Assembly (NCBI GenBank): GCA_002378195.1 | Contig: DFRJ01000001.1 | Span: forward strand, 161,722 to 225,721 | Source of the DNA: Patescibacteria group bacterium UBA3466 | Lineage (GTDB): Bacteria; Patescibacteriota; Minisyncoccia; Phycocordibacterales; UBA918 | DNA: 64,000 nucleotides | Direction: 5' to 3' | Shown here: positions 3,018 through 18,457 of the stretch, piece by piece | Position numbering within the stretch: position 1 is the stretch's first letter | Layout: each line of letters begins with the position of its first letter | The notes under the pieces: model-generated | Databases searched by the model: none | What the model was told of the DNA's origin: nothing | What the model saw: the letters and a program-made list of their open reading frames with translations, nothing else | Made by a program: the position numbers and the translations under genes

Positions 3018-3110
3018 GCTTCCAACACAAATATAGCTTAAGATGTCAGTTCGTTTACAGGTGTAAACGGTTCGAAAGTCTCCCAGACTTTCTCACTTCC
3101 ACCAACTTCG
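3018..3110 (+). pseudogene. Degenerate inverted tRNA-Val-like fragment
   Basis: The plus strand carries CAGTTCGTTTACA, identical to the tRNA-Val anticodon arm. GGTTCGAAAGTCTCCC resembles the T-arm and TCGTCGCGC the acceptor end. No intact D-arm or acceptor pairing. Confidence 0.35.
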
Positions 3111-3443
3111 TCGCGCTTAAATATTTGGTTGTAGGGGATATCCTACCGAATTTTTCAAAAAAAACAATAGGCTACTTTTAAAATAGTTAGAGCTCGCAAC
3201 TTGTGCGAGCTCGTACCCCTTCACCGTTTTGCCATCTGAATCTGAAATGGCAGATTAAAATAACGGGGTGGTTGAAATTTGGGTAGGTGACGTTTCCGAT
3301 TTTTGTTCGGAGACGGCCGACTTTCTGGTTCACCACCACGGTTATAGGTCCGGTGCTTATTTGCCAAATGAACTTCTCCTTGTTAGTGTGCCTATTTACT
3401 TTATAGACCGGTGTAGGGTCTGACGCAAGTTAACAGGTGTGAA

Positions 3444-3803
3444 TCATACCGCCTCAATAATCCCCGCCACACCGGTTTCAGTATTAGTTTCTGCCGGTAT
3501 GGCCGGAGAGGTGGCATGAAGTTTGAAGAGTCGACCTGGTTTGTCAACGCATAGCGTCAACGTATCTTTGCAGTCAGTGAAGACAAATTCTCCATTTCGC
3601 ACAAAGCCGAGTGAGATCTCAGCTGTGGTGTGGAAACTGATAGGTGAGCTGCAGCCCGTGAGATTGTCGATACTTCGAATTAGATATTCGACCCGACCAT
3701 CCCCAGCTTTTTTGACGGTAACGCCAACATGGCAGGTGACATTATGCAGGCAAATTTTCTTACCAGGGGAGGCAGTGATGTTGATCGGTTCACTAACGTA
3801 CAT
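3444..3803 (-). CDS. MOSC-like beta-barrel domain protein (putative)
   Basis: 119 aa; the segment GEFVFTDCKDTLTLCVDKPGRLFKLH resembles the MOSC block GDIF..ALIQVSQPRSPCYKL. Confidence 0.35.
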   Translation of the reverse strand: MYVSEPINITASPGKKICLHNVTCHVGVTVKKAGDGRVEYLIRSIDNLTGCSSPISFHTTAEISLGFVRNGEFVFTDCKDTLTLCVDKPGRLFKLHATSPAIPAETNTETGVAGIIEAV

Positions 3804-3925
3804 ATATTACTTCCTTTTGTTGACCAGAGGGTTGTTGTAGAACTACTTCACCAGCAACAATATAATAATATTTATATATGTCAAATATGTTGGTTTAGTG
3901 TTGGGCACAAGGTATACTGTCACGC

Positions 3926-4198
3926 ATGATCGAAATGCTAGCAGTCGTGACTGGTAAAGTGCAGAAAGTAGCCTACCGAGCTTATACCCAAGAATCGGCG
4001 ACCGAGTTAGGGATAGTAGGTAGTGTGCAAAATATGTCCAATGGCACAGTACAAGTAGTGGCTCAGGCTGAGCCTGATGTCTTGAAAGAGTTTGTGGAAT
4101 ACTTAAATGAAGGGTCACTAATGTCAGAAGTGGAAGGGGTGTCGGTCGAATGGCGCAGTGTATCCAAAACTTACGACGAATTTTCTTTGTTGCATTAA
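3926..4198 (+). CDS. acyP: Acylphosphatase
   Basis: 90 aa; GKVQKVAYRAYTQ...GIVGSVQNMSNGTVQVVAQ matches the acylphosphatase signature VQGVxFR...GWVRNxxDGxVE. Confidence 0.75.
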   Translation: MIEMLAVVTGKVQKVAYRAYTQESATELGIVGSVQNMSNGTVQVVAQAEPDVLKEFVEYLNEGSLMSEVEGVSVEWRSVSKTYDEFSLLH

Positions 4199-4201
4199 AA
4201 T

Positions 4202-4882
4202 ATGAACAAAACTTCAATCCAGTGCCTTGGCTTTATTATGGACGGCAATCGCCGTTGGGCGAAAGAAAAAAACCTGCCTACTTTAGAGGGTCATCGTAAG
4301 GGGCACGAGGTGTTCCTTGACTGCGTTCGCTTTGTTAGAGATCAGCATATCCCGCACGCAGTTTTTTATGCCTTTTCTACTGAGAATTGGAATCGTTCAG
4401 AAGAAGAGGTGGCGTATCTCATGCAGTTGTTCGCTCAAGTCATTGAAAATATCAAGAAAGGAGTAGATGAAGAGAGGGTGCGAGTGCGGATAGTTGGTAA
4501 TCGGTCTGACTTTTCAGAAGAACTGCAAACCGCTATGACAGAGTTGGAAGAAGATAGTGCCAAATATACAGAGACTACCATCTGGTTGGCGCTATCATAT
4601 GGAGGCCGAGCCGAAATAATCACGGCCGTTAATCAGGCGGTCGAAAACGGCACTAAAGTGACAGAAACAGATTTTCAAAAATTATTATGGACAGCTGATA
4701 TGCCTGATCCCGACATGATCGTGCGTACCAGCGGCGAACAGAGACTGTCTAATTTTTTGCCCTGGAATTCAGTTTATAGTGAATTCTTGTTTTTAGACAA
4801 ACACTGGCCCGCTTTGACCAAAAGTGATTTCGACGGCATACTCAATGAATATGAATCCAGAGACAGGCGAAAAGGTAAGTAA
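4202..4882 (+). CDS. uppS: Undecaprenyl pyrophosphate synthase (isoprenyl transferase)
   Basis: HLGFIMDGNRRWA near the N-terminus plus the central ENW and C-terminal RTSGEQRLSNFLPW motifs of cis-prenyltransferases. Confidence 0.9.
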   Translation: MNKTSIQCLGFIMDGNRRWAKEKNLPTLEGHRKGHEVFLDCVRFVRDQHIPHAVFYAFSTENWNRSEEEVAYLMQLFAQVIENIKKGVDEERVRVRIVGNRSDFSEELQTAMTELEEDSAKYTETTIWLALSYGGRAEIITAVNQAVENGTKVTETDFQKLLWTADMPDPDMIVRTSGEQRLSNFLPWNSVYSEFLFLDKHWPALTKSDFDGILNEYESRDRRKGK

Positions 4883-5621
4883 TGAACCAGCAGTATTGTT
4901 TGAGAACGATGATGTTGTTTTCATCAACAAGCCATACGGCTGGTTAACTCATGCGGATGGACATAATCAAACTGCACCGGTAGTGGTGGATTGGTTGTGC
5001 GCCAAGTACCCTGAAGCTAAGGGGGTTGGAGAGCCTGGCTACGCCAAAGATGGCTCGGAACTCGATCGATCGGGTATTGTGCACCGGCTTGATCGAGAAA
5101 CGTCTGGAGTGTTGGTGTTGGCAAAGAATCAACCTGCATACGAATTTCTCAAGGAACAATTTAAGGAACGGTTGGTACGCAAAGAGTACCGAGCGTTTGT
5201 GTATGGCCGGATGAATGATCGGTGGGGCACTATCAACCGACCAATCGGCCGTAGTGCCAAAGACTCTCGTCGTCGATCAGCTGAGCGGGGAGCCAAGGGT
5301 GTGCGTCGGGAGGCGATTACCGACTTTGAGCGAGTCGGGATGGGTGAGTATGATGGCGAACCTTTTTCTTATGTTAGATTGATCCCTAAAACTGGCCGCA
5401 CTCACCAGCTTCGAGTGCATTTACGCGCCATCGATCGTCCAATTGTTGGTGATGGTCTATATGCTGAGCATAAAATCCAAAAATCCAATAACTTATCGCT
5501 TGATAGGCTGGCTCTTCATGCCTATATTCTTGAATTGGCCCTCCCGAGTGGTGAAACCCACCGCGCTATGGCACCAGTTCCCCAAGAGTTTGAAATAGCG
5601 GCCGAGCGCATTGCAGAGTAA
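4824..5621 (+). CDS. RluA-family pseudouridine synthase
   Basis: VHRLDRETSGVLVLAKN catalytic-Asp motif and KEYRAFVYG block of the RluA/RluD family. Overlaps the uppS 3' end, so the true start is probably 4845 or 4851. Confidence 0.8.
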   Translation: MISTAYSMNMNPETGEKVSNEPAVLFENDDVVFINKPYGWLTHADGHNQTAPVVVDWLCAKYPEAKGVGEPGYAKDGSELDRSGIVHRLDRETSGVLVLAKNQPAYEFLKEQFKERLVRKEYRAFVYGRMNDRWGTINRPIGRSAKDSRRRSAERGAKGVRREAITDFERVGMGEYDGEPFSYVRLIPKTGRTHQLRVHLRAIDRPIVGDGLYAEHKIQKSNNLSLDRLALHAYILELALPSGETHRAMAPVPQEFEIAAERIAE

Positions 5622-5718
5622 CTAGTATTGTGGTAGATTGTGGCACGTTTTAAGGACCTTTTTATAAGGTCTTCTTTATTAAGAAACGACGCATTCAGAT
5701 TTATTAATTGTATTTATT

Positions 5719-6369
5719 ATGAAAGTAGCAATGGAGGGGGTTGAAGTATCTCCCGTAAACATGGAAGAACGTAAGTCACTTGGTATCCGAGCTGGAGACA
5801 CAGTGCGAGTTCACCAAAAAATTCAAGATAAAGGTAAGACCAGAATTCAGATTTTTGAAGGTTTGGTTCTTGCTCGTAAGCATGGTAATGAACCAGGAGC
5901 GACCTTCACTGTACGAAAGGTGGCTAGTGGAGTAGGGGTGGAAAAGATTTTCCCACTGTATTCACCACTTATCGATAAGCTAGAAATCGTTAAGCGCGCT
6001 AAAGTGCGACAATCTAAGTTGTACTACATTCGTGAGAAGGTTAATCGAGAGATTAAGCGACAAATGCGTCGAATGCACCTAGTTGCTCTCGCAACCGAAT
6101 CTGAAGCTGAGGCAGAAGTTCGAAAGGCTGAGGAAGCTAAGAAAGCTGAAGAAGAAGCCGCTCGCGTAGCTGAAGAGGAAGCCAAGAAGGCAGAGGAGGC
6201 TGCAGCCAAAGAGGCGGAAGCAGCTCCAGCAGAAGCACCGGCTGAAGAGTCTGCTGATGAAAATACTGAAGAAGCTGCCGAAGAGGCGGCGCCAGTGGTA
6301 GAAGAAGCAGCTGAAGAAACTCCAGTAGAAGACAAGAAGGAAGAGACTGAAGAAGAAAAAAAGGATTAG
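5719..6369 (+). CDS. rplS: Ribosomal protein L19 with ~100-aa C-terminal E/A/K-rich low-complexity extension
   Basis: AGDTVRVHQKIQDKGKTRIQIFEGLVLARKHGNEPGATFTVRKVASGVGVEKIFPLYSP aligns with bacterial L19. The tail is EAEAEVRKAEEAKKAEEEAARVAEEEAKKAEE... Confidence 0.85.
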   Translation: MKVAMEGVEVSPVNMEERKSLGIRAGDTVRVHQKIQDKGKTRIQIFEGLVLARKHGNEPGATFTVRKVASGVGVEKIFPLYSPLIDKLEIVKRAKVRQSKLYYIREKVNREIKRQMRRMHLVALATESEAEAEVRKAEEAKKAEEEAARVAEEEAKKAEEAAAKEAEAAPAEAPAEESADENTEEAAEEAAPVVEEAAEETPVEDKKEETEEEKKD

Positions 6370-6375
6370 GTTAAA

Positions 6376-6410
6376 TAAAAAGCCGGCGCCCTACGGGCGC
6401 CGGCTTTTTA
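6376..6410 (+). terminator. Rho-independent terminator (GC-clamp family: aaaaagccggcgccc-tac-gggcgccggcttttt)
   Basis: Perfect 12-bp GC stem followed by a T-run, immediately after rplS. Confidence 0.8.
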
Positions 6411-6463
6411 TTTACTTGAACAATATAAGTGCTTCAGGCATAATGGCTCGCACCAATCGATAT

Positions 6464-6548
6464 GTCTACGTGGCGGAATTGGTAGACGCGCTACCTTGAG
6501 GGGGTAGTGAGCATTATGCTCGTGCTGGTTCAACTCCAGTCGTAGACA
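6464..6548 (+). tRNA. tRNA-Leu (anticodon GAG), class II with long variable arm
   Basis: GTCTACG-TG-GCGGAATTGGTAGACGCG-CTACC-TTGAGGG-GGTAG-TGAGCATTATGCTCG-TGCTGGTTCAACTCCAGT-CGTAGAC-A gives the expected acceptor, D, anticodon (TTGAGGG) and T arms plus a long variable arm. Confidence 0.85.
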
Positions 6549-6589
6549 CAAATTAAGACGCCTTCGGGCGTTTTTAATTTGTGTCTACG
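6541..6589 (+). terminator. Long hairpin/terminator after tRNA-Leu. A 16-bp outer stem includes the tRNA 3' acceptor strand, around an inner gacgcc-ttcg-ggcgtt stem plus T-run.
   Basis: cgtagacacaaattaa...ttaatttgtgtctacg inverted repeat enclosing acgccttcgggcgttttt. Confidence 0.6.
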
Positions 6590-6795
6590 AAGAAAGCAAA
6601 CTGCTTTGCTTTCGTCTGGAGTTAAAAGACGGAACGATGTGAGTGTGCGAACAAGTGAGTCGGGGTCGAAAGCACTTGGTAGATTTGTTGCGAAGCAATA
6701 AATATACTTAGTGACTTGTGGCCAACGTAGGGAGTAGACATACAAATTAAACGAGGCGATATCTCCGATATCGCCTCGTTTGCTATACTACCGAC

Positions 6796-7251
6796 ATGAA
6801 AGCAATCAAAGATACTTCATATGGGGTGATTCCGGTCAGACGAGCGGGAGATTCATTCGAAGTGTTTCTCATCCATCAATATAGTCGCATTGGAAATAAT
6901 ACTTACTGGGTTTTTCCCAAAGGACACCCTGAAGCCGGGGAAACTCCAGAAGAAACGGCTAGACGTGAACTCAAAGAAGAAACTGACATGTTGGCTGATA
7001 AATTAATAAGGGATCCAGTTTTTAAGCTGCAATATAGCTTTCACTACGACGGTAATCTAATTGATAAGACTGTAGTATTCTTCCTTGGCCTGGTTTCCCA
7101 AATTGAATACCAGCTAGACCCAGAAGAAGTGAAAGAAGCGGGCTGGTACTCCCTCGCAGATGCTAAAAAACGACTAGACTACAGTGATACAAAACAGATG
7201 TTCTCCGAAGTAACAAATTTTCTGGCAAGCCAATCCGCACTTGAAATATAA
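6796..7251 (+). CDS. NUDIX hydrolase
   Basis: Nudix box GHPEAGETPEETARRELKEETD (GX5EX7REUXEEXGU). Confidence 0.85.
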   Translation: MKAIKDTSYGVIPVRRAGDSFEVFLIHQYSRIGNNTYWVFPKGHPEAGETPEETARRELKEETDMLADKLIRDPVFKLQYSFHYDGNLIDKTVVFFLGLVSQIEYQLDPEEVKEAGWYSLADAKKRLDYSDTKQMFSEVTNFLASQSALEI

Positions 7252-7326
7252 GTAATAGCTTGTATAGTTTGTTTTGAATTAGGTTACTTTGGTCTTTCCG
7301 TTTTTAAACCAATAAGGAGACGCATA

Positions 7327-7872
7327 ATGCGCCTACTAATTATTGTGGTACTGCTGTCAATCGCTTTTTCCGCTAGCGCTCAAGAAGGACTAGATCAACG
7401 TTTTCGAGATCCGGAAAGTGTTTTGTTACCGGGTTGTGAAAAAGTCAGAGACTTGCGTCATGCGTTTCGGAACATGGATCGTGCTCAGGCTTTTCAAGAA
7501 GACTACGATTACAAATTCCTTGACGGCATCACTGGTTGCGACCGGGTGCGCATCCGTTCTCGTAGCACCTATCACCTGCATAGTTTTTTTGCTGGGGAAT
7601 TTGGACTGTTCTCAGTCTATGAGGTCCGGGGAGGGCGTGGCCACCGCGATAATGAAGTTGTCGGGTATGTGGTGGTTAGTGAATATGATAAACGGTCATG
7701 GGAGATCGCTGATAAGCGCTACTGTAGCATGTCTTCGTCGGTGGGTAACTGTTTGTTGCCTCGAGACTGCATGGTTTTCTCCGGTCGGATTCCGGCTGGC
7801 ACTTTTCACAAACTGCCAGTTGATGAGGTGGCAATTCCGCCATATTGCTTTGGTGTGGGCAGAAGTCATTAA
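7327..7872 (+). CDS. Secreted hypothetical protein, Cys-rich
   Basis: Signal peptide MRLLIIVVLLSIAFSASAQE; AAGGAG Shine-Dalgarno sequence 7 nt upstream. The overlapping alternate-frame ORF 7418-7999 is rejected. Confidence 0.55.
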   Translation: MRLLIIVVLLSIAFSASAQEGLDQRFRDPESVLLPGCEKVRDLRHAFRNMDRAQAFQEDYDYKFLDGITGCDRVRIRSRSTYHLHSFFAGEFGLFSVYEVRGGRGHRDNEVVGYVVVSEYDKRSWEIADKRYCSMSSSVGNCLLPRDCMVFSGRIPAGTFHKLPVDEVAIPPYCFGVGRSH

Positions 7873-7885
7873 CATTAAGGTAAAA

Positions 7886-7923
7886 CCAAGACGCTGGTGC
7901 GATAGCACCAGCGTCTTTTACTT
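7886..7923. terminator. Bidirectional terminator hairpin between convergent genes
   Basis: aagacgctggtgc-gata-gcaccagcgtctt with A-run and T-run flanks. Confidence 0.7.
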
Positions 7924-9312
7924 TTACACTTTGTTTAATTCTGATTCGGCTTTTCGTACAGCGTTTCTAACAATTTCTGGCAGGGCGGGGTGGATGTAGA
8001 TCATTTTTAGTAGGTCTGCGCAGGTGGCTTCCATGGTCATGGCCAGTATTAATTGGTGCACCATAGTAGCGGCTTCTTCACCAATAATATGCGCTCCCAG
8101 TAGTTTCTTACTCTCTTTATCGAACATTAGCTTGACGAGCCCTGTTTCTGGTAAGCGAGCCATACCCTGAGCACTGTGTTTGTATTCATGAGTCACCACC
8201 AGGTAATTAGCGCCGGTTTGGCGAAGTTGATCTTCGGTGGCACCAACGCCAGCAATCTCTGGGTAAGTGAAGACCGCGTGAGGCATTGGTGGGTAAGAAA
8301 TTTCTGCCTTCTCGGCATACTTGAATAGCTGCTCAAATAAATACTCACCTTCAAAGTTGACACTGTGTCGGAATAGAAAATTACCTACACAGTCGCCAAT
8401 AGCGTACACGCCAGACGCATTAGTTTCTAGATGACCGTTCACCTTTATGTAACCTCGTTCATCAGTTTGGATATTCGTATTCTCGATACCCAATTCATCT
8501 GTGTTTGGTGTCACTCCCGTGGCCAGGAATAGGGCATCTCCTGACACCCGTACTTCATTACCGGCGGGGTCTAGGCCAGTCAGGGTGAATTCGTCTGATT
8601 CATAAGAGACTGTCAGGTTTTGGGTGCCGTAAATTGTCTGGTGTTTTTTCTCAAAAATTTTCTGAAACTCTTCTCTGATAGTCTCGTCTTCATGGCTAAG
8701 GTAACAGTCCCGCACAAAGAATATTGTTTCAGTCCCGAGGGCGCTATAGACATGACCAAGCTCACTGGCGATGTAGCCGCCACCTATTACAAGTAATTTT
8801 TTCGGTTGCCGGTCTGGTTTGAGTACTTCGCGACTAGTCATATAAGGAGTACCGGCCAGTCCAGGAATTGGTGGCACATTCGGCCTTGAGCCGGTCGCAA
8901 TAACAATCAGCGGTGCAGTTATAGTTTCATCGCCAACTTTAATCACTTTATCTTCTACAAACAAAGCAGACCCTCGGTAATAGTCTAGGGTATCTATGGT
9001 GTCGTAGGTGGTAGCAATTGAAGCGCTTTCAGCCTCCACGGTTTTGTTTACACGGTCGAACAGTCTTTCAAAGTCAACCTTGCAGTCACCGTCTATTTCG
9101 ATGCTGTATTTATGCAGCTCCTTAGCGTGATTCAGAACATTGGCCGGGTGGATTAGCATTTTTGAGGGGATGCAACCTCGATTGAGACAAGTGCCACCTA
9201 AGTCTTCTTTCTCAATGATCGCTACTCGCTTGCCGAGCTTAGCTGCGGGGGTAGATAGTTTGGTGCCGCCACCAGCTCCTATGACAATTAGGTCGTATTC
9301 TTTCATGCTCAT
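7924..9312 (-). CDS. FAD-dependent pyridine nucleotide-disulfide oxidoreductase (dihydrolipoyl dehydrogenase / glutathione-reductase class I)
   Basis: DLIVIGAGGGT FAD-binding motif, redox-active disulfide GGTCLNRGCIPSK, second Rossmann fold LLVIGGGYIASE, C-terminal HPALPE interface motif. Confidence 0.8.
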   Translation of the reverse strand: MSMKEYDLIVIGAGGGTKLSTPAAKLGKRVAIIEKEDLGGTCLNRGCIPSKMLIHPANVLNHAKELHKYSIEIDGDCKVDFERLFDRVNKTVEAESASIATTYDTIDTLDYYRGSALFVEDKVIKVGDETITAPLIVIATGSRPNVPPIPGLAGTPYMTSREVLKPDRQPKKLLVIGGGYIASELGHVYSALGTETIFFVRDCYLSHEDETIREEFQKIFEKKHQTIYGTQNLTVSYESDEFTLTGLDPAGNEVRVSGDALFLATGVTPNTDELGIENTNIQTDERGYIKVNGHLETNASGVYAIGDCVGNFLFRHSVNFEGEYLFEQLFKYAEKAEISYPPMPHAVFTYPEIAGVGATEDQLRQTGANYLVVTHEYKHSAQGMARLPETGLVKLMFDKESKKLLGAHIIGEEAATMVHQLILAMTMEATCADLLKMIYIHPALPEIVRNAVRKAESELNKV

Positions 9313-10737: not shown

Positions 10738-10770
10738 AAGTATTTAGTATAGTCAAAACCTGCTGTTTAG

Positions 10771-12015
10771 CTAGTTCATATCCAGAATCAACCCGGCCCA
10801 GGTGAAGCGGTCGGCGCCCATACCTTGGCCGGTTTCAGGATGGTAGTACTCACGCATGCCAGACTTTCGGATTAGTTCTTCAGTAGAGGTTTTTAGTTTA
10901 GCCGCTTCCTCGTTAAAACCGTATCGCTTTAATCCTTGGTAAACACACCAATTGACCACCATCCAGATTGGCCCGCGCCAATGCGGGTGCTGCCACGGTT
11001 GACCAAAGTCTGGTTCGGTGGGGGCGTAGGCTTCATCGCTCTGACTAACGGTCGGGATTGAAAATGGGGTAGAGAAGTGACGGGGAGAATTAAAATATTT
11101 ATCGATTAACTCAGACGCTTCTTCTGGTGAGTATAATCCAGCGAATAAGGGGGCAAAATGAGCCCAAGTATCTACTTCAATGAGTGGTTGGCTGGGTCCC
11201 ATAGCGCTCAAAAATACTCCGTCACTAAAACAGTAGCGCCGCAAATCCTCGGCAGTTTGATCGGCTTGCTGAAGCAGCTGATCAGATTTTGTCTGATCTC
11301 CCAAAATTTCAGCTATCCGACTTAAGGAGCGGACGCTCTCTAGGGTGAAAATATTGAATGGCACGTCTTCGACCCAGAAGTGTTCGTGTGTACCCTGATT
11401 AGCCTTAAACGCATTTTGCTTATGCACGTCAAATAAGGCAAACCGCTTTTTTTGATTTTCCTCTACATCGTGTATTGGTGGCAAGTCGAGCGCGATATCA
11501 AAACGCGGTGAGTTATCCTCGCCCGATTCGTCGGGGTTGATGATGCCGTAAATATTTCGGTTGGGAAGTTGGCGCTCACGCGCTAGGTATTCGTGCCACT
11601 TCACCAGTTTGGGGAAAATGCGCTGCAGCCAATCAGTATTACTGGTCTTTTCAAAAATTCTTAAAGCAGTGTATGCAATGACCGGCGGCTGGATGAGGGT
11701 GGTAGTGTTAGTGTCGACGCCCCAGTCAACCGGGTACACATCGTGGTCACGCTCCCAGTAGATCACGTGAGGTACCATGCCGTTTTCCCACTGTTTGGTT
11801 AGCAAGGTTTCGATTTCTTTTTCTGCCAGTTCTGGCTGGTAGTAGCTATATATGAGAGCATGCCAACAAGAGTCCCAGAGCCATTGGTAGGGGTAGGCGC
11901 GGTCGGAAGGCACGGTGTAGAAATGTCCGCCAGACTTACGCTGGTTGTTGGCCATGGTTGATTTGATAAGGGGCAAGAACTCACTTTCCATGGTCTCATT
12001 ATAGCGGTCAATCAT
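10771..12015 (-). CDS. GH63-like six-hairpin glycoside hydrolase (mannosylglycerate/glucosylglycerate hydrolase-like)
   Basis: YPYQWLWDSCWHA and HPHWRGPIWMVVNWCVYQGL blocks resemble the MGH1-like / GH63 alpha-alpha toroid glycosidases. Confidence 0.55.
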   Translation of the reverse strand: MIDRYNETMESEFLPLIKSTMANNQRKSGGHFYTVPSDRAYPYQWLWDSCWHALIYSYYQPELAEKEIETLLTKQWENGMVPHVIYWERDHDVYPVDWGVDTNTTTLIQPPVIAYTALRIFEKTSNTDWLQRIFPKLVKWHEYLARERQLPNRNIYGIINPDESGEDNSPRFDIALDLPPIHDVEENQKKRFALFDVHKQNAFKANQGTHEHFWVEDVPFNIFTLESVRSLSRIAEILGDQTKSDQLLQQADQTAEDLRRYCFSDGVFLSAMGPSQPLIEVDTWAHFAPLFAGLYSPEEASELIDKYFNSPRHFSTPFSIPTVSQSDEAYAPTEPDFGQPWQHPHWRGPIWMVVNWCVYQGLKRYGFNEEAAKLKTSTEELIRKSGMREYYHPETGQGMGADRFTWAGLILDMN

Positions 12016-12027
12016 CGCCGTCGCTTA

Positions 12028-13464
12028 TTAATCACTGGATAAATAATCTTTGGCCTGACTTAAATGCGTGCGCTTTTTTTCTTCAGTCATTTTTTCTAAT
12101 AACCTAGGCATCATCGAGAGCCGGTGATTTGATTTGAAAAAATCTAAATGTTCATTAATAAAATTCCAGTAGAGGGCCGTCCAGGTTTCCTCCCAGTCAC
12201 CCTTGGGGAAATCAGACATTTTCTTTAAGTAGTTGCTGCCGGAGATGTATGGTTTGGTGGCAAAGCTACCGCCATCAGCAAATTGGCTCATGCCGTAGAC
12301 ATTGGGCACCATCACCCAGTCGTAGGCATCAACATACATACCCATAAACCAGCGGTAGACTTCATCGGGATGTATTTGACTCAGGAGCATAAAATTTCCC
12401 ATGACCATAAGTCGTTCTATGTGGTGGGTATACCCAAATTTTAAAGCGGTATTTATCACCTGGTCGACTGGCATGATGCCGGTCTTGCCTGACCAGTGAC
12501 TATCCTGCAGTTTTCGTGTATGTGCAAAAAAGTTTTGGTTACGCATGACGTTACCATCAACTTCGTAGCTAGCTCGTATGAATTCTCGCCAACCTAAAAT
12601 CTGTCGAACAAAACCTTCTATTGAATTGAAGGGTATTTTGTTATCTTCAGCATAATTGATCGCTGTCTTTAAAACGGAGTCGGGTTCTAGCAGCCCCACA
12701 TTAATAAGAGGGGATAAGGCTGAGTGAAAAAGCCGAGTACCTTTGGTGGTCATAGCATCTTCGTAGGTGCCGAAGTGGTGGAAGCGGAGGCGGAAAAATT
12801 CCTGGAGGAATTTTTCCGCCTCCGACCTCGTATAAGGCAGCCAGCACCCCGCTTCACCATAAATTTCTCCTTCAATTTCAGCGCTCCACTCAATCGCCGC
12901 TTTTACCTCATTGTTAGATATAAACTCTATATCTGTTGGCCGGTCAATGTCCCGCGGCAGTTTTTTGCGATTATCATCATCAAAACTCCATTTGCCTCCC
13001 GCCGGTTCACCTCGATCGTCTATCAAAATATTTTTATCAATTCGCAGCTGTTTATAGAAACTAGCCATAAATTTACGACTCGACACAAACCGGTGCATTG
13101 CCTCGGCTTTTGTTAATACAAACAAGGGTGAGTCGTACCAGACGCGCTCAATATTTAGTTGGGCAATTTTTCTCTCGAGGTAGTTGTCTGTGGTGTCGAC
13201 GACATGAATTTGTTCTATCTGGTCGCGGTTCAGGATTTCTCCCAAGTCATTTCGGACAGACACTCTAGTTACTTGATAGCCAGCTTGCTCTAACTCAGCC
13301 TGATAAACATCCATAGTTAGTTTGTGGAAGATTAATTTCTGGCGGTGGATTGGATTGTGGGTAAGGATTAGTGGCTCTTCAACTAAATAAATTGGCCGCC
13401 CCAGCGAGACGGCCGGCGAAGTCTCAAATAATTGGTGAGGGTAGATGATAGTGGCTTCATTCAT
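12028..13464 (-). CDS. Cryptochrome/photolyase-family protein (COG3046, (6-4)-photolyase-related)
   Basis: MNEATIIYPHQLF... N-terminus and overall ~480-aa architecture of photolyase-related PhrB-like proteins. Few cysteines, so an Fe-S cluster is not evident. Confidence 0.65.
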   Translation of the reverse strand: MNEATIIYPHQLFETSPAVSLGRPIYLVEEPLILTHNPIHRQKLIFHKLTMDVYQAELEQAGYQVTRVSVRNDLGEILNRDQIEQIHVVDTTDNYLERKIAQLNIERVWYDSPLFVLTKAEAMHRFVSSRKFMASFYKQLRIDKNILIDDRGEPAGGKWSFDDDNRKKLPRDIDRPTDIEFISNNEVKAAIEWSAEIEGEIYGEAGCWLPYTRSEAEKFLQEFFRLRFHHFGTYEDAMTTKGTRLFHSALSPLINVGLLEPDSVLKTAINYAEDNKIPFNSIEGFVRQILGWREFIRASYEVDGNVMRNQNFFAHTRKLQDSHWSGKTGIMPVDQVINTALKFGYTHHIERLMVMGNFMLLSQIHPDEVYRWFMGMYVDAYDWVMVPNVYGMSQFADGGSFATKPYISGSNYLKKMSDFPKGDWEETWTALYWNFINEHLDFFKSNHRLSMMPRLLEKMTEEKKRTHLSQAKDYLSSD

Positions 13465-13513
13465 ATTATGTTTGTGTTAGACGATGTTACCACGATCTAA
13501 TTGCAGAGCGTGT

Positions 13514-14056
13514 CTAATCGCAAACTCCGGCTGCCCAGAGGCCGAGTTGATTAGATTTCGCATATTGTTCAGCGGCTTGGAAGTCAGCTTGGTACTGGTA
13601 TGGAGTTTTAAAAGTGTATTCATAGCCAAAACCATTTCTGATCATCTTCTCAGCAAAGTTTTCGCCTGAGGTTAAAAAGATGTAACCAAGCAACCGGTCG
13701 TATTGATCACGCTTGGCTTGACTTGGGTCATGAGTGAAAGTGACTGTCTGATTAGTTAAAATTCTTCTGGCTTCTTCGGTTGCCTCTTGGCCAAAACACT
13801 CTTCTTTTCGATACGGACTGTCAGTCTCGGGGGTGTTGAGGCCCACCAAGCGTACGCTTTCGATAGTGTCGTCTATGTTTAGCCGGATCGTGTCCCCATC
13901 TATGATGTCTACCACTTGGTATTGATTGTGAGGAGAGGAGGTCGCTGCCGGTTCCTCTCGATCGAGGTTTTTGTTGACCCCGGTTTCAGCCGGCACAAAC
14001 TCTGACCAAAGCATCAGGCCAGTTATGATCAAAATGAGAGGAAGGATTAATTTCAT
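13514..14056 (-). CDS. Secreted thermonuclease (SNase/micrococcal nuclease family)
   Basis: Signal peptide MKLILPLILIITG, then VVDIIDGDTIRL...VRLVGLNTPE...CFGQEATEEA catalytic blocks of staphylococcal-nuclease homologues. Confidence 0.8.
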   Translation of the reverse strand: MKLILPLILIITGLMLWSEFVPAETGVNKNLDREEPAATSSPHNQYQVVDIIDGDTIRLNIDDTIESVRLVGLNTPETDSPYRKEECFGQEATEEARRILTNQTVTFTHDPSQAKRDQYDRLLGYIFLTSGENFAEKMIRNGFGYEYTFKTPYQYQADFQAAEQYAKSNQLGLWAAGVCD

Positions 14057-14061
14057 TTTGA

Positions 14062-14478
14062 TTATTCTTTCGGACAAGCCAAATCTTCTTCACTAAATAC
14101 GCCGCTGGGGCAGACGTCGTAAATAGCAGTTGGTTTTAGTACCAGCAAACCCTTGGTCACCCGTTCGGGATTTTGAGTTTCGACCCAGGCTGCCGCCTCT
14201 TCAAACTCTGCTCCAGCACTAAGATAGGTAACCTCGGCTTTTATCTGGACACCGGTCATATCGGTCCAAGCGGCTAAAGCTACTTGCCCGTCAGCTGCCA
14301 GATTATTCTTGGTTTTATTCATGAAAAAATCGAAGAGCCAGATTGAATCTGAATTGACTCTAATCATTGAAACCGGCACCACGTTTATTCCTTCTGGCCC
14401 ATTGGTGGCCAAGGCTTTGGCGCTGGCATTTTCTAAGAGGGATTTGATTGTAGTTGAAAGTGACACGATAAAATACAC
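14062..14478 (-). CDS. Pyridoxamine 5'-phosphate oxidase-like FMN-binding split-barrel protein
   Basis: LATNGPEGINVVPVSMIRV pattern of the PNPOx-like family; 138 aa. Confidence 0.6.
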   Translation of the reverse strand: MYFIVSLSTTIKSLLENASAKALATNGPEGINVVPVSMIRVNSDSIWLFDFFMNKTKNNLAADGQVALAAWTDMTGVQIKAEVTYLSAGAEFEEAAAWVETQNPERVTKGLLVLKPTAIYDVCPSGVFSEEDLACPKE

Positions 14479-14519
14479 TTAGATTGGTATTCTTCCATTA
14501 TACTCCGCTTCATCTTTGT

Positions 14520-14549
14520 TACGTAGCATGTTACGTAACATGCTACGTA
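14520..14549. promoter_or_regulatory. Perfect 30-bp palindrome tacgtagcatgttacgtaacatgctacgta in the divergent promoter region
   Basis: The sequence equals its own reverse complement; between divergently transcribed genes ending at 14478 (-) and starting at 14675 (+). Confidence 0.6.
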
Positions 14550-14674
14550 GCAAGTACCTAAACTGAAACTATTGGAACATCAGAAACATCAATTGTTCCT
14601 TTATATAAAACATGAGGTATACCAGCATAAAGAAGTGGCTTTTTCTTTTCCGTTATAGACTATAATAACCAGTA

Positions 14675-15190
14675 ATGAATCAAGAAATATTTAACGGAAA
14701 GGTTGTTCGGTTGATGATTGAACCAAAAGAAGTTAATGGTAAAACTATAGATTTTGAAAAAGTTTATTTACCGGGTTCGGTGCATATTTTTCCGATAACA
14801 GATGAGGGTAAGATTCGTCTGGTTAGAGAGAGGAGACATGAGCAGGATGGGAAAGTGAAAGACAAAGTAACGGCTGGCATTATCGAGAAAGATGAAGATT
14901 CTCTGGTGGCTGCAAAGCGGGAGCTTAAAGAAGAGCTGGGGTTAATAGCCGAAGAGTGGAAAGAGGTTTATGTGGCGGAGCAGAAAGGAGCTGTTAACGA
15001 TAGTCGCGTATATTATTCAGCAAAAAATCTAATTCAAGTGGATTTAGAGCATGATGAAGGGGAAGATATACTGGGTTTTGTAGACTACACCTTGGAAGAA
15101 CTTTTTCAGAAAGTTGTAGATGGAGATTTTGGTTCGTCGCCAACTGCTGTTGTGATTGCTAGGTTGTGTCATCAAGGATTGGAGCTTTAG
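14675..15190 (+). CDS. NUDIX hydrolase (ADP-ribose pyrophosphatase-like)
   Basis: Nudix box AGIIEKDEDSLVAAKRELKEELGL. Confidence 0.8.
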   Translation: MNQEIFNGKVVRLMIEPKEVNGKTIDFEKVYLPGSVHIFPITDEGKIRLVRERRHEQDGKVKDKVTAGIIEKDEDSLVAAKRELKEELGLIAEEWKEVYVAEQKGAVNDSRVYYSAKNLIQVDLEHDEGEDILGFVDYTLEELFQKVVDGDFGSSPTAVVIARLCHQGLEL

Positions 15191-15202
15191 TCTGGTTTGT
15201 TT

Positions 15203-15280
15203 AAGTACAGTAGGCACTAAAAAAATACCCCAAAATAAGTTTTTAAATATCGCTTCTTGGAATGGGCACGTACTGTCCAT
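15203..15280. repeat. Repeat R1 (direct repeat of R2 at 15878-15960), includes a degenerate tRNA-His 3'-end-like segment aatgggc
   Basis: Shares acagtaggcactaaaaa (17/17) and aaatat(c/a)gcttctt(g/a)(g/a)aatgggc with R2. Confidence 0.6.
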
Positions 15281-15415
15281 GCGACGTAACTAGTTTGAGG
15301 AAATTTGTGCGGATTAGTTGGGGAAGGTGAGGAGACATTTACTGAATAATATTGGCATATAAATATATTTGTGGCATTATTCCTAATAGGATTCAACTGT
15401 ACATGGAGGTGGGCT

Positions 15416-15808
15416 ATGCCCAAGACATTTCAACTCATAGATCTGATGTCCGCTAACGGCGGCGACGGCGAAGTTCACGATAATTTCAAGGACGCTCTGC
15501 GCGATCTCTATGATCGCATAAATCATGTCATGGATAATGGAACGATGACGAGTCAGTGGCTTGAAACCAGTGTCTGGATTTCCGTTGAAGATATTGATCC
15601 TGATACTGATACTGATCTGCGTGGTCCGATTTACTTCTACGATGCGCGCGACATCGCAATCAAGTATGGCTTGGTCGACGGTGGCGCCAAGGTAGTAAAC
15701 GAAGGCGGGCATGAGCCTGATGGTGACATGTTGGTTGAGGTAGCACTGCTGTGTACTATCGACGGTGGCGCCGAACAATACATCAAAGGTCTTGATAGGG
15801 TAGCGTAG
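15416..15808 (+). CDS. Hypothetical acidic protein; cargo of the repeat-flanked insertion at tRNA-His
   Basis: 130-aa ORF between R1 and R2; no recognisable domain. Confidence 0.4.
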   Translation: MPKTFQLIDLMSANGGDGEVHDNFKDALRDLYDRINHVMDNGTMTSQWLETSVWISVEDIDPDTDTDLRGPIYFYDARDIAIKYGLVDGGAKVVNEGGHEPDGDMLVEVALLCTIDGGAEQYIKGLDRVA

Positions 15809-15877
15809 CACCCGCCAGCACTGAACGAATTGGCTCGCCAGTCGTAGTGTTGGCGGGTCTTTTCTTTTGATTCCACT

Positions 15878-15960
15878 ACTGACAGTAGGCACTAAAAACA
15901 CCATCTAAATATGTTGCTAAATATAGCTTCTTAAAATGGGCGGCTACCGGGAATCGTCCT
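15878..15960. repeat. Repeat R2 ending in a partial copy of the tRNA-His 3' end (ggcggctaccgggaatcg)
   Basis: Matches tRNA-His 3' segment ggcgactaccgggaatcg at 16153-16172 in 17/18 positions; the left part is homologous to R1. Confidence 0.6.
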
Positions 15961-16152
15961 GACGGTCACCAAGTTATTTTGCTTCGTTTCCTCACAAAAT
16001 AACTGGTGCCGCGGGACACACCTCGCTTGTTCGTCATCCTTCCTCACACCGCTCCGGCGTTCGATTCCTGACGCGAGCAAAGCAGTTTGCTCGCTGTATC
16101 CGCCGTCACCAAATCAAAACACTCCCAAAAGGGAGTGTTTTGATTTGCCGAT
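15938..16152. mobile_element. ~200-nt tRNA-associated element between a partial tRNA-His 3'-end copy and tRNA-His; homologous to the element downstream of tRNA-Val
   Basis: Same block order as 2722-2925 (ggtcacc, tattttgcttcg, ctcacaaaata, ccgctccgg); contains a terminator hairpin caaaacactccc-aaaa-gggagtgttttg at 16118-16146. Confidence 0.45.
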
Positions 16153-16226
16153 GGGCGACTACCGGGAATCGAACCCGAACTGCCGGTACCACAAACCGGT
16201 GCACTAACCGTTATACTATAGTCGCC
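16153..16226 (-). tRNA. tRNA-His (anticodon GTG) with encoded G-1
   Basis: Reverse complement G-GCGACTA-TA-GTAT-AACGGTTA-GTGC-A-CCGGT-TTGTGGT-ACCGG-CAGT-TCGGG-TTCGATT-CCCGG-TAGTCGC-C. G-1 and C73 are bacterial tRNA-His identity features. Confidence 0.8.
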
Positions 16227-16427: not shown

Positions 16428-17558
16428 ATGGGGCGAGTATCGTTCTGTAGGGCTCTGGTAATGCTGGTACTGTTGGTGCCAGTTTGGGTGTCCGCTCAAA
16501 ACCTGCACCAAGACGTGCAAGAACGCTTAGCGGCTGAAGTGATTGAAATTGTAGATGAGCGAGAGCGAGAGATCACCGGTACCGATGCTATTGCGACCGT
16601 ACAAGAAGTGCGGGCGGTACTGCATTCGGGGGACCGGGCAGGGGAAGTGGTGCGCTTTGAAAGTGAGGCGGTTAGCCTCGAAAAAGGTGACGATATTTTT
16701 CTTAATCGAGTCGTTACTATAAATGGTGACGAGTATATTACCTTTGCCGATTTTGAGCGCCGGCCAGTCATATATATGTTGGCCGGACTGTTTGTGATGT
16801 TGCTGGTCGGCCTGTCTGGGTGGGGTGGTCTCAGAGCGCTGGCTTCTTTGGCGGGTAGTATTGCTGCCATAGTCTTTCTACTTATCCCTGCGCTCTTGGC
16901 CGGATACAACCCAGCTCTTACCAGTGTCCTGATTGCGGCCGTGATCATGGTATTTGTCTTGTTTGGTACACATGGGGTGAATCCGCGCACTATTATTGCT
17001 TTTGTAGGGACATATAGCGCGATTGCTGTTACCGGATTGATCGCCTTTTTGTCAGTGGATATGATGCGGCTAACTGGTTTTGGGAACGATGCTTCAGTTT
17101 ATTTAAATTTTGCCACCAATGGTCAGCTTGATTTGTCTGGGCTACTACTCGGCAGTGTGATTATCGGTATTTTGGGAGTGTTAGATGACGTGTCGATCAC
17201 GCAAGCCTCGGTGGTACAAGAGCTAAAACGCGCCAACCGCAACTTTAAATTCAACGAATTATATAAAAGAGCAATCGTGGTCGGGAAGGATCATATTGGT
17301 TCTTTAGTGAATACGCTCGCCTTGGCTTATGTGGGGGTGTCACTGCCACTTATATTATTGTATGCCAAGACTGACTCTAGTTTGATTACTAATCTCAACC
17401 AAGAGGTGGTGGCGGCAGAGATTGTGCGGATTATCATCGGCAGTATCGGGCTTTTGTTGGCTGTACCCGCTACCACCGCAGCGGCGGCTTGGTGGTTTAA
17501 TGATCGAGAGGTTGACGGAGACGTTGAAGCGGGGCATTGTCACCATCACCACCACTAA
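16428..17558 (+). CDS. YibE/F-family integral membrane protein with native C-terminal His-rich tail (GHCHHHHH)
   Basis: Signal/TM helix at N-terminus, a ~70-aa soluble segment, then ~8 TM helices as in the YibE/F family; last residues HCHHHHH. Alternative start at 16461. Confidence 0.55.
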   Translation: MGRVSFCRALVMLVLLVPVWVSAQNLHQDVQERLAAEVIEIVDEREREITGTDAIATVQEVRAVLHSGDRAGEVVRFESEAVSLEKGDDIFLNRVVTINGDEYITFADFERRPVIYMLAGLFVMLLVGLSGWGGLRALASLAGSIAAIVFLLIPALLAGYNPALTSVLIAAVIMVFVLFGTHGVNPRTIIAFVGTYSAIAVTGLIAFLSVDMMRLTGFGNDASVYLNFATNGQLDLSGLLLGSVIIGILGVLDDVSITQASVVQELKRANRNFKFNELYKRAIVVGKDHIGSLVNTLALAYVGVSLPLILLYAKTDSSLITNLNQEVVAAEIVRIIIGSIGLLLAVPATTAAAAWWFNDREVDGDVEAGHCHHHHH

Positions 17559-18232: not shown

Positions 18233-18251
18233 CACACGAAGTAGTCGTGTG
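18233..18251. promoter_or_regulatory. Palindromic hairpin cacacga-agtag-tcgtgtg upstream of nrdB (candidate operator, NrdR-box-like spacing off by 1)
   Basis: ACAC-N9-GTGT palindrome ~200 nt upstream of the nrdB start. Confidence 0.25.
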
Positions 18252-18457
18252 TCGGGGGTATGACACACGCTCCTCTCTCTTCAGAAGAGCAGAGCATCAT
18301 TTTTTTAAATGGTGGTGTGTTTGTCGCGGCCTAGTTTGCGCCTAGACCTAATTGCACTAAAATAGTTTCACCAATCTAATTTAGTATCTTCCACCAATTA
18401 CGTCTGCACGCAAGCACCAAAGTCATTTACTCATAATCCAATTATTTAGAGACTTAC

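Follow-up and report, generated by a model that had tools for sequence, protein, structure and literature searches.

The stretch of DNA analysed here, 64,000 nucleotides of contig DFRJ01000001.1 from the Patescibacteria group bacterium UBA3466 (hereafter the window), carries an intact tRNA-His(GTG) gene that anchors an array of repeated junction modules, a folded element named X and small gene cassettes at one end of a flexible island (Table 1). The YibE/F protein encoded in the window has its closest named relatives in Candidatus Kaiserbacteria (Patescibacteria/Candidate Phyla Radiation, CPR; marine). The window, which represents 64 kb of the genome, was compared with other contigs (labels in the range L001-L079), of which up to 10 kb each was covered. 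On the 5′ side of tRNA-His approximately 20 related contigs are syntenic (YibE/F, MscL, ribonucleotide reductase, M10 peptidase, SIMPL, NusG and L11), and on its 3′ side the DNA is different in every lineage. The far flank is conserved again, with a photolyase that is 68% identical in L067 and a Pyr_redox protein that is 70% identical in L069; the island in the window therefore spans approximately the interval from this flank to tRNA-His. Its genes encode an MGH1-like glycoside hydrolase, DPRP, SNase, PNPOx, NUDIX and a 130-aa protein (ORF130, the cargo gene), while L067 and L069 have a wholly different content. The feature described in the first-pass annotation of this DNA corresponds to the tRNA-proximal 960 bp of the island, in which the order towards the tRNA is the NUDIX gene; repeat R1 fused to module Y, with the promoter, ORF130 and its terminator; repeat R2 followed by the core, X and a terminator; and finally tRNA-His.

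Table 1. Features of the tRNA-His locus and of the related tRNA-Leu locus in the window (positions are those of the window)
Feature	Positions	Strand	Remarks
Flexible island, conserved photolyase/Pyr_redox flank to tRNA-His	10738..16152		Pfam and synteny
tRNA-His(GTG), intact, array anchor	16153..16225	-	ARAGORN; Rfam tRNA model 16154-16225, 57.3 bits
Proximal direct core ATGGGCGACTACCGGGAATCG, within and just past the tRNA-His 3′ end	16151..16171		repeat search
Bidirectional intrinsic terminator hairpin, 17-bp stem, flanked by A-run and T-run	16110..16147		between tRNA-His 3′ end and X
X, structured palindromic junction element, 175 nt	15936..16110		fold z=-9.9; covariance model 161 bits
Displaced core ATGGGCGGCTACCGGGAATCG, G variant of the tRNA-His 3′ end	15936..15956		repeat search
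X helix P1a	15939-15947/16096-16104		predicted fold
X helix P1b	15948-15955/16063-16070		predicted fold
X helix P2+hp1	15956-15981/15995-16017		predicted fold
X hairpin hp3	16073-16081/16086-16094		predicted fold
Inverted (sense-orientation) tRNA 3′-end copy split by hp3: GATTCCTG ... [hp3] ... GTATCCGCC	16063..16104		
R2, copy of the tRNA-His trailer module R, adjoins displaced core	15871..15935		nhmmer E=8e-18
Intrinsic terminator of the cargo gene	15832-15859 or 15832-15869	+	conserved with L001
Cargo gene (ORF130), 130-aa acidic protein, pI 4.17, 26 D+E	15416..15808	+	
Shine-Dalgarno GGAGGTG, five bases before the start codon	15405-15411	+	
Promoter-like site TTGGCA-17-TGgCATTAT	15352..15380	+	kept in L001 as TTGACA-17-TGaTATTAT
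Y junction module, starts TGGGCACGTACTGTCC, core-like over ~13 nt	15263..15340		nhmmer E=1.5e-18 and alignments
R1, distal copy of R, fused straight to Y without X between	15195..15262		hidden Markov model (HMM) and alignment
Second X-family element, directly downstream of tRNA-Leu(GAG)	6576..6742	-	nhmmer; covariance model 83.8 bits, E=5e-21
tRNA-Leu(GAG)	6464..6549	+	

The tRNA-His gene had been recognised correctly in the first-pass annotation, except that its end was set at 16226, one base beyond the limit found by ARAGORN. The proximal core comprises the 3′ end of tRNA-His and the two bases that follow it, and a copy of it lies displaced 215 nt downstream of the tRNA, with 194 nt (15957-16150) between the two. 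The two cores match at 20 of 21 positions, and the 17/18 match reported earlier for an 18-mer in or next to R2 was reproduced; the identity ends in the T-loop. Allowing up to three mismatches, this 18-mer occurs at only two sites in the 64 kb (0.04 expected). In the acceptor stem of the resident tRNA-His a compensated A:U pair is present at the position where the displaced core has a G, so simple local duplication does not account for the displaced core. It matches exactly the tRNA-His 3′ end found in L007 and other relatives, as well as the core associated with the ORF130 cassette in L001. The arms of the terminator between the tRNA and X extend imperfectly, one into the tRNA 3′ end and the other into the inverted core.

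R1 and R2 (HMM-defined limits 15195-15262 and 15871-15936) are homologous, as had been proposed, with 72-78% identity over ~65 aligned nt up to AATGGGC. Both contain the exact 17-mer ACAGTAGGCACTAAAAA (at 15207 and 15882), which has no further copies in the window (0.23 expected even with three mismatches). According to the identity matrix, R2 is nearer to the R copies of other genomes (82-86%) than to R1 (72%), which means that it came in with foreign DNA and was not duplicated locally. In L077 and L067, R directly adjoins genuine tRNA-His genes, so that R followed by the core represents a tRNA 3′ end with its native trailer; this excludes the alternative that R is a dispersed repeat unrelated to tRNA-His. 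The earlier description of nested repeats that each end in a tRNA-like fragment holds for R2 and its core, but not for R1, which is fused to a distinct conserved module, Y. The outer palindrome arm of R1 has been lost at the stop codon of the NUDIX gene.

Y and Z are two modules of ~75 nt, starting with TGGGCRCGTACTGTCC and GGGCGACGTCGTAGAGGATGTTCGAAC respectively (GGGCRC/GGGCGAC). Y was found at cassette boundaries in L029, L041, L058, L061, L064, L068, L072 and L077. Where the copies are intact, the beginning of Y and the outer half of R are reverse complements of each other and form a palindrome of ~95 nt (L068, fold z=-2.7). The possibility that Y and Z are decayed tRNA-His bodies was rejected, since global alignment was no better than with shuffled sequences (z<0) and no match to the tRNA model was obtained. 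The Z modules (e.g., L077 2987-3060 and 4343-4418; L067 8772-8848) contain two 8-nt palindromes, CGACGTCG and GTTCGAAC, followed by a promoter-like layout in which TTGAGA and TATATT are conserved and separated by a variable spacer of ~17 nt; often, though not always, Z lies 40-80 nt upstream of a start codon on the same strand.

HMM searches of the window and its relatives resolved four modules, namely R, the core, X plus terminator, and Y or Z, which keep a constant orientation relative to tRNA-His. R, Y, Z and X recur at most boundaries between gene blocks, and the junction modules are 70-90% identical between genomes. Filled junctions consist of R, core, X and terminator followed by the tRNA, by Y or by Z; empty junctions take the form R-Y (R1-Y in the window, and L068), R-Z (L067) or a plain tRNA-His. 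The cassette genes (APH-like kinase, histidine phosphatase, glyoxalase, NUDIX, ParE/RelB, restriction-modification plus SMODS, deaminase, Ham1 and the like) are typical accessory cargo.

The sequence between the two cores had been listed as a 200-nt element. The properties of X show that it is not debris. In the predicted fold, the displaced core pairs with the inverted copy of the tRNA 3′ end (P1a and P1b), and three copies of X folded far better than their shuffles (z = -9.9, -10.0 and -10.3). Among 11 copies, 93.8% of the cells are paired, compared to 71% in shuffled alignments and 33-46% with slid partners, and 29 of the 39 pairs show compensatory changes. A covariance model then retrieved 20 copies at E<1e-9, with 93.0% of cells paired (70% in shuffles, 32-44% in slid controls) and compensatory changes in 32 of the 39 pairs. 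Covariation with the inverted arm is seen at three positions within the tRNA-derived core, and in L041 the CAGGG T-stem variant of that genome's own tRNA reappears in the tRNA-proximal X. The GCAG loop of hp3 and the termini (GGGCGGCTACCGGGAAT and its complement) are conserved. Judged from these alignments, X is a conserved, selected and folded element and not decayed filler. At gathering threshold, Rfam 15 contained no non-tRNA family matching the window or 14 loci (X, Y and Z included), and a relaxed search gave nothing over X at E<=5; X is the one clearly new component of the locus, a previously undescribed element family.

The pairing of X is symmetric with respect to the strands. Among 718 pair cells, G-T does not exceed A-C (18 against 22), and few changes affect one side only; Watson-Crick pairing is therefore constrained on both strands, and these counts point to X being more like a DNA palindrome than a one-strand RNA. 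The same symmetry meant that no strand could be assigned to X by counting G-U pairs. Other identities were considered for X and rejected: a bridge RNA, retron non-coding RNA or omega RNA, as no IS110, reverse transcriptase, TnpB or IscB genes were found in the arrays, and a primer-binding site, as the complement has no CCA in register. Nor is X a miniature inverted-repeat transposable element: inverted arms are present, but the repeat consists of 17-21 nt of tRNA sequence.

The 64 kb contain only two copies of X, both at tRNA 3′ ends. The second lies next to tRNA-Leu(GAG), and its inverted arm (AACTCCAG...[hp3]...TCGTAGACA) equals the 3′ end of tRNA-Leu, while its body is homologous to X. The body of X is therefore modular, with at least the inverted arm following the neighbouring tRNA; decay has left 7 nt of the distal direct copy. 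A 17-bp perfect inverted repeat (6540-6556/6574-6590) links the tRNA-Leu end to this X across a terminator, and a second terminator lies beyond it (6749-6781). The tRNA-Leu and tRNA-His genes are convergent and bracket ~9.6 kb. When metagenomes were scanned for cores that run on into sequence other than the tRNA, copies of X adjoining tRNA-His were found in L029/L042, L045, L062 and L055, and copies between genes elsewhere in L033, L041, L047, L058, L061 and L064. Gene-less X units adjoin tRNA-His in at least seven genomes, and many copies of X begin 5-15 nt past a terminator. Two copies in L041 (5364-5533 and 8251-8420) are nearly identical to each other and ~69% identical to the tRNA-proximal copy of that contig, a within-genome homogeneity that recalls the attC sites of chromosomal integrons.

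The 130-aa ORF with its acidic product was confirmed, and it looks like a real gene because it has its own Shine-Dalgarno sequence, promoter-like site and terminator. The earlier statement that no function could be assigned to the cargo also stands, as the Pfam search gave nothing and PHROGs one weak match (E=0.034). The AlphaFold2 model of the protein (mean predicted local distance difference test, pLDDT, 44.8) was too poor for a fold search. The GC composition was uninformative, the cassette having the same values (0.50-0.52) as the conserved YibE/F side. Among 5.8 billion proteins, homologues of the cargo protein form two clusters only: one with 74% identity (L001-L004), located in a different neighbourhood without a tRNA, and one with 59% identity (L005), located 2.6 kb from another tRNA-His.

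In L001, DNA homology to the window (76%) extends from the promoter through the gene and terminator into R and the core, and stops exactly at the core GGGAAT. At this break L001 has an insertion of 1408 bp, with a core repeat of 19 bp on either side and a gene for a 350-aa protein within it; past the second core repeat the X of L001 is 91% identical to that of the window. The insert (6497-7923) is bounded by perfect core repeats (TTGGGCGGCTACCGGGAAT) and carries a divergent X of its own (Xa) with a 14-bp perfect closing stem; the 350-aa protein is rich in coiled coils and has no Pfam match. A truncated tRNA-like remnant (GATGGGCCAGAGTCCGAATC...) lies to the right of the other copy, Xb.

The comparison with relatives that had been proposed for locating empty sites was informative, since a plain tRNA-His without X, extra core or ORF is present in L007, L063, L065/L066 (the closest relative, YibE/F 73%), L067 and L068. 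Turnover is also visible between closely related contigs. L076 and L077-79 have the same YibE/F and are 99.9% identical from exactly the tRNA 3′ end, and unrelated beyond it. L067 and L068 have their tRNA-distal genes in common and differ in the tRNA-proximal cassette (R-Z with DUF3800 in the former, R-Y with a 237-aa gene in the latter). Among four conspecific contigs, L072 and L074 carry one 202-bp X unit more than L073 and L075. These four contigs (3100-7460) also contain several IS200-like units of ~570 bp (142-146-aa Y1_Tnp, 99.6% identical) that differ in number and position between conspecific contigs, which makes them active insertion sequence (IS) elements inside the array. The Y1_Tnp genes (L072-75 and L077) were set aside as ordinary, strain-polymorphic IS200-like insertions that are absent from most arrays.

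Searches for a recombinase were made at several levels. Pfam revealed no integrase among the ORFs near the locus and the candidate ORFs of the window, and no credible match was obtained with a tyrosine-recombinase motif expression applied to every window ORF of 110 aa or more; its two flags were an antisense ORF and an M10-peptidase orthologue. Among the scanned proteins of approximately 15 related arrays, Pfam likewise found no integrase or fragment of one, apart from a serine recombinase in L076. There, a 585-aa large serine recombinase-like gene with a weak PF00239 (Resolvase) match lies at tRNA-His (6449-8210); conspecific strains have a Z-gene-Z-gene array at the same site (L077 5207), and an HMM search found no X, Y or Z module in the recombinase element. 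The recombinase ORF runs into tRNA-His on the opposite strand, and ArdC-N is encoded nearby. The first-pass annotation had taken the lack of an integrase as a sign that the island is degraded. The lack itself was borne out, whereas decay is an unlikely cause of it: since the absence is consistent across the scanned arrays, it looks systematic and the cassettes look integrase-less by nature.

Empty relatives, strain breakpoints at the tRNA end and the recurrence of cassettes indicate that the locus bears footprints of recombination at a hypervariable tRNA-His 3′ end. The reading that we favour, with a rough probability of 0.55, is an accretion of integrase-less cassettes at this 3′ end with X as the recombination site, comparable to integrons, to integrative mobile elements exploiting Xer (IMEX) or to the staphylococcal cassette chromosome (SCC). 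The island would grow and turn over via recombination at the tRNA 3′ end, each event keeping the tRNA intact and displacing the earlier core and R outward. Two units can be recognised in the window. The one next to the tRNA (15936-16150, 215 bp) has no gene and comprises the displaced core, the X body with the inverted core and the bidirectional terminator; the second unit (~15263-15935), with R1 as its distal bound, consists of Y, the self-sufficient 130-aa gene and R2. The cassettes may depend for their movement on a recombinase that acts in trans and has its gene elsewhere, as is the case for integron cassettes, IMEX and ccr-less SCC. X would be the site that such an enzyme acts on: its direct and inverted copies would pair, perhaps in single-stranded DNA, into a mimic of the duplex 3′ end of the tRNA gene. 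The proposal of successive integrations at a tRNA-His att site was thus right in kind, and went wrong in its filler element and in its integrase decay.

Several results weigh against this accretion of cassettes in trans. No recombinase linked to the arrays was found in the 64-kb window or in the up to 10 kb covered for each relative, and no circular or excised form was seen. Neither IMG/VR nor PLSDB yielded X, Y or Z, or a free element with a contiguous attP: searching IMG/VR for cores that continue in sequence other than a tRNA returned 17 matches, all of them chance matches inside unrelated phage genes, and IMG/VR scans for X, Y and Z motifs together with a PLSDB blastn search returned nothing or one chance coding match. 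In the species of the window itself the arrangement is the same in six of six contigs, with no sign of recent mobility. The indel of the X unit between L072 and L073 is bounded by identical repeats of 99 nt, so that homologous recombination could explain it. The R1-Y palindrome of the window has no significant fold (z=+0.97), and the cargo gene differs from most integron cassettes in having a promoter of its own.

A broader proposal is that CPR bacteria similar to Kaiserbacteria possess an integron-like capture system, in which X (and perhaps R-Y and R-Z) would be folded palindromes that rebuild the 3′ end of a tRNA (His, and also Leu), and a recombinase acting in trans would insert integrase-less cassettes into the tRNA 3′ end, leaving the tRNA undamaged. 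We put this forward tentatively, as a possible but doubtful extension.

Among the rival explanations, a classical series of decayed islands, in which integrase-carrying elements integrated successively and then lost their integrases and most of their genes, leaving X, Y and Z as remains of attP arms without present function, agrees with tRNA 3′-end repeats that end in the T-loop, the textbook footprint of a tyrosine integrase, and with the serine recombinase element that adjoins the same tRNA in L076. Tandem accretion with partial tRNAs has moreover been documented for tycheposons (10.1101/2020.12.28.424599). We nevertheless regard it as unlikely, given that Pfam found no integrase or fragment of one among the scanned proteins of approximately 15 arrays, that the purifying selection for pairing across the 20 copies of X would be unexpected of debris, that gene-less X units stand beside tRNA-His in at least seven genomes, and that the one recombinase element detected is devoid of X, Y and Z. 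Somewhat less probable is that homologous recombination alone is responsible, with DNA uptake using the tRNA and YibE/F side and the junction modules as portable homology, and with palindromes that are incidental (e.g., terminators or insulators). The 99-nt repeats at the X-unit indel, the resemblance of junction modules between genomes and the near-identical X copies within L041, which suggest gene conversion, fit with this; it leaves unexplained the precise duplication of the tRNA 3′ end with its compensated inverted copy, the point inside the core where the homology between the window and L001 stops, and the 19-bp repeats around the L001 insert.

Least probable of these alternatives, in our opinion, is that X is a gene for a non-coding RNA, which might be a minihelix resembling tRNA-His and transcribed together with the tRNA, or else an antisense regulator with a 5′ end complementary to the tRNA 3′ end; the repeats would then be duplications of that gene. 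Its very stable fold (z~-10), extensive covariation and conserved loops such as the GCAG of hp3 would suit an RNA, as would the terminators that flank it and the TATAAAAT box that R carries upstream of some copies. A one-strand RNA would not be expected to show G-U pairs no commoner than A-C or so few one-sided changes, and the many copies that begin directly past a terminator leave no space for a promoter. The lack of an Rfam match, the copies at cassette junctions far from any tRNA, the copy number that varies between strains and the switch of the arms to tRNA-Leu sequence beside tRNA-Leu argue in the same direction.

The favoured accretion at tRNA-His can be compared with several known systems. 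The attC sites of integrons have RYYYAAC/GTTRRRY cores, and intI with attI and the promoter Pc stands at the head of the array. Integron arrays and clusters of attC sites lacking integrases (CALINs) are, as here, anchored on one side and composed of small accessory-gene cassettes (toxin-antitoxin, NUDIX, glyoxalase, APH). Like X, attC is an imperfect palindrome at each junction, with conserved ends, a variable centre and one orientation, in which a direct core has an inverted counterpart at a distance of 60-140 nt and the copies within a genome are very similar. As expected of an attC-type site, the structure of X is conserved more than its sequence and its copies lie in one orientation; R-Y folds in L068 but not in the window. 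The differences are that the ends of X are tRNA-derived (GGGCGGCTACC.../...GGTAGCCGCC) instead of RYYYAAC/GTTRRRY, that X is ~175 nt long and branched, that the cargo in the window has its own promoter and that the genes may lie in either orientation. No intI, attI or Pc was found beside the array; YibE/F, MscL and ribonucleotide reductase (RNR) adjoin the anchor in every locus examined.

The attP of CTX phage contains two inverted copies of its site ~90-130 nt apart, which can fold into a duplex that mimics the target. Xer-dependent IMEX and CTX at dif resemble the present locus in that integrase-less elements are stacked in tandem at one chromosomal site, and in the predicted fold of X the helices P1a and P1b likewise bring two inverted target copies together as a duplex mimic, with no recombinase of its own. 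The target here is a tRNA 3′ end rather than dif, and genes for phage or rolling-circle replication are lacking. In staphylococci, SCC and pseudo-SCC are located at rlmH (orfX), and recombinase-less units are mobilised in trans. They share with this locus the insertion at the 3′ end of a conserved gene, direct repeats of 15-19 bp and tandem composites. One related strain (L076) has a large serine recombinase at this tRNA, in an element that lacks X, Y and Z. The staphylococcal elements differ in that no ccr-like gene was found in the window or in the other arrays. The pdif sites of Acinetobacter plasmids are 28-bp XerC/D sites. The pdif modules are also small and integrase-less, with alternating inverted recombinase sites and often toxin-antitoxin or resistance genes, whereas the sites described here derive from tRNA, lie on the chromosome and have long structured spacers.

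The closest documented case is that of the tycheposons of Prochlorococcus, which accrete in tandem at tRNAs and have their own tyrosine recombinase and replication modules (Hackl et al.; 10.1101/2020.12.28.424599). Both are hypervariable tRNA islands in streamlined marine genomes, with partial tRNA copies between elements, newer insertions that push older ones outward and accessory or defence cargo. Here, by contrast, no integrase was found in the scanned cassette proteins, the units can be as small as 202-215 bp, and each boundary has an X, Y or Z module, whereas an X-like site or Y/Z modules have not been described for tycheposons.

Little is known about gene acquisition in the tiny genomes of CPR/Patescibacteria, in which this locus represents a hotspot at which lineages exchange defence and toxin-antitoxin genes as well as small accessory genes. 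The junction grammar of R, core, X, Y and Z is directly searchable. If X is a recombination site, it provides a testable model for how integrase-less cassettes target a tRNA 3′ end, and co-occurrence with X provides a handle on the recombinase; if it is an RNA instead, it constitutes an unrecorded family. Should the integron-like reading be true, such structured att sites would form a new class, and gene flow in ultra-small, host-dependent bacteria would have a new route.

Two further observations concern the conserved side of the locus. A weak, sub-threshold match to the Rfam family SorX (23.6 bits, E=0.02), probably due to chance, lies at 18240-18305, within the long leader that precedes the ribonucleotide reductase genes. 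The YibE/F protein ends in ...GHCHHHHH (window 17520-17558), a natural His-rich tail.

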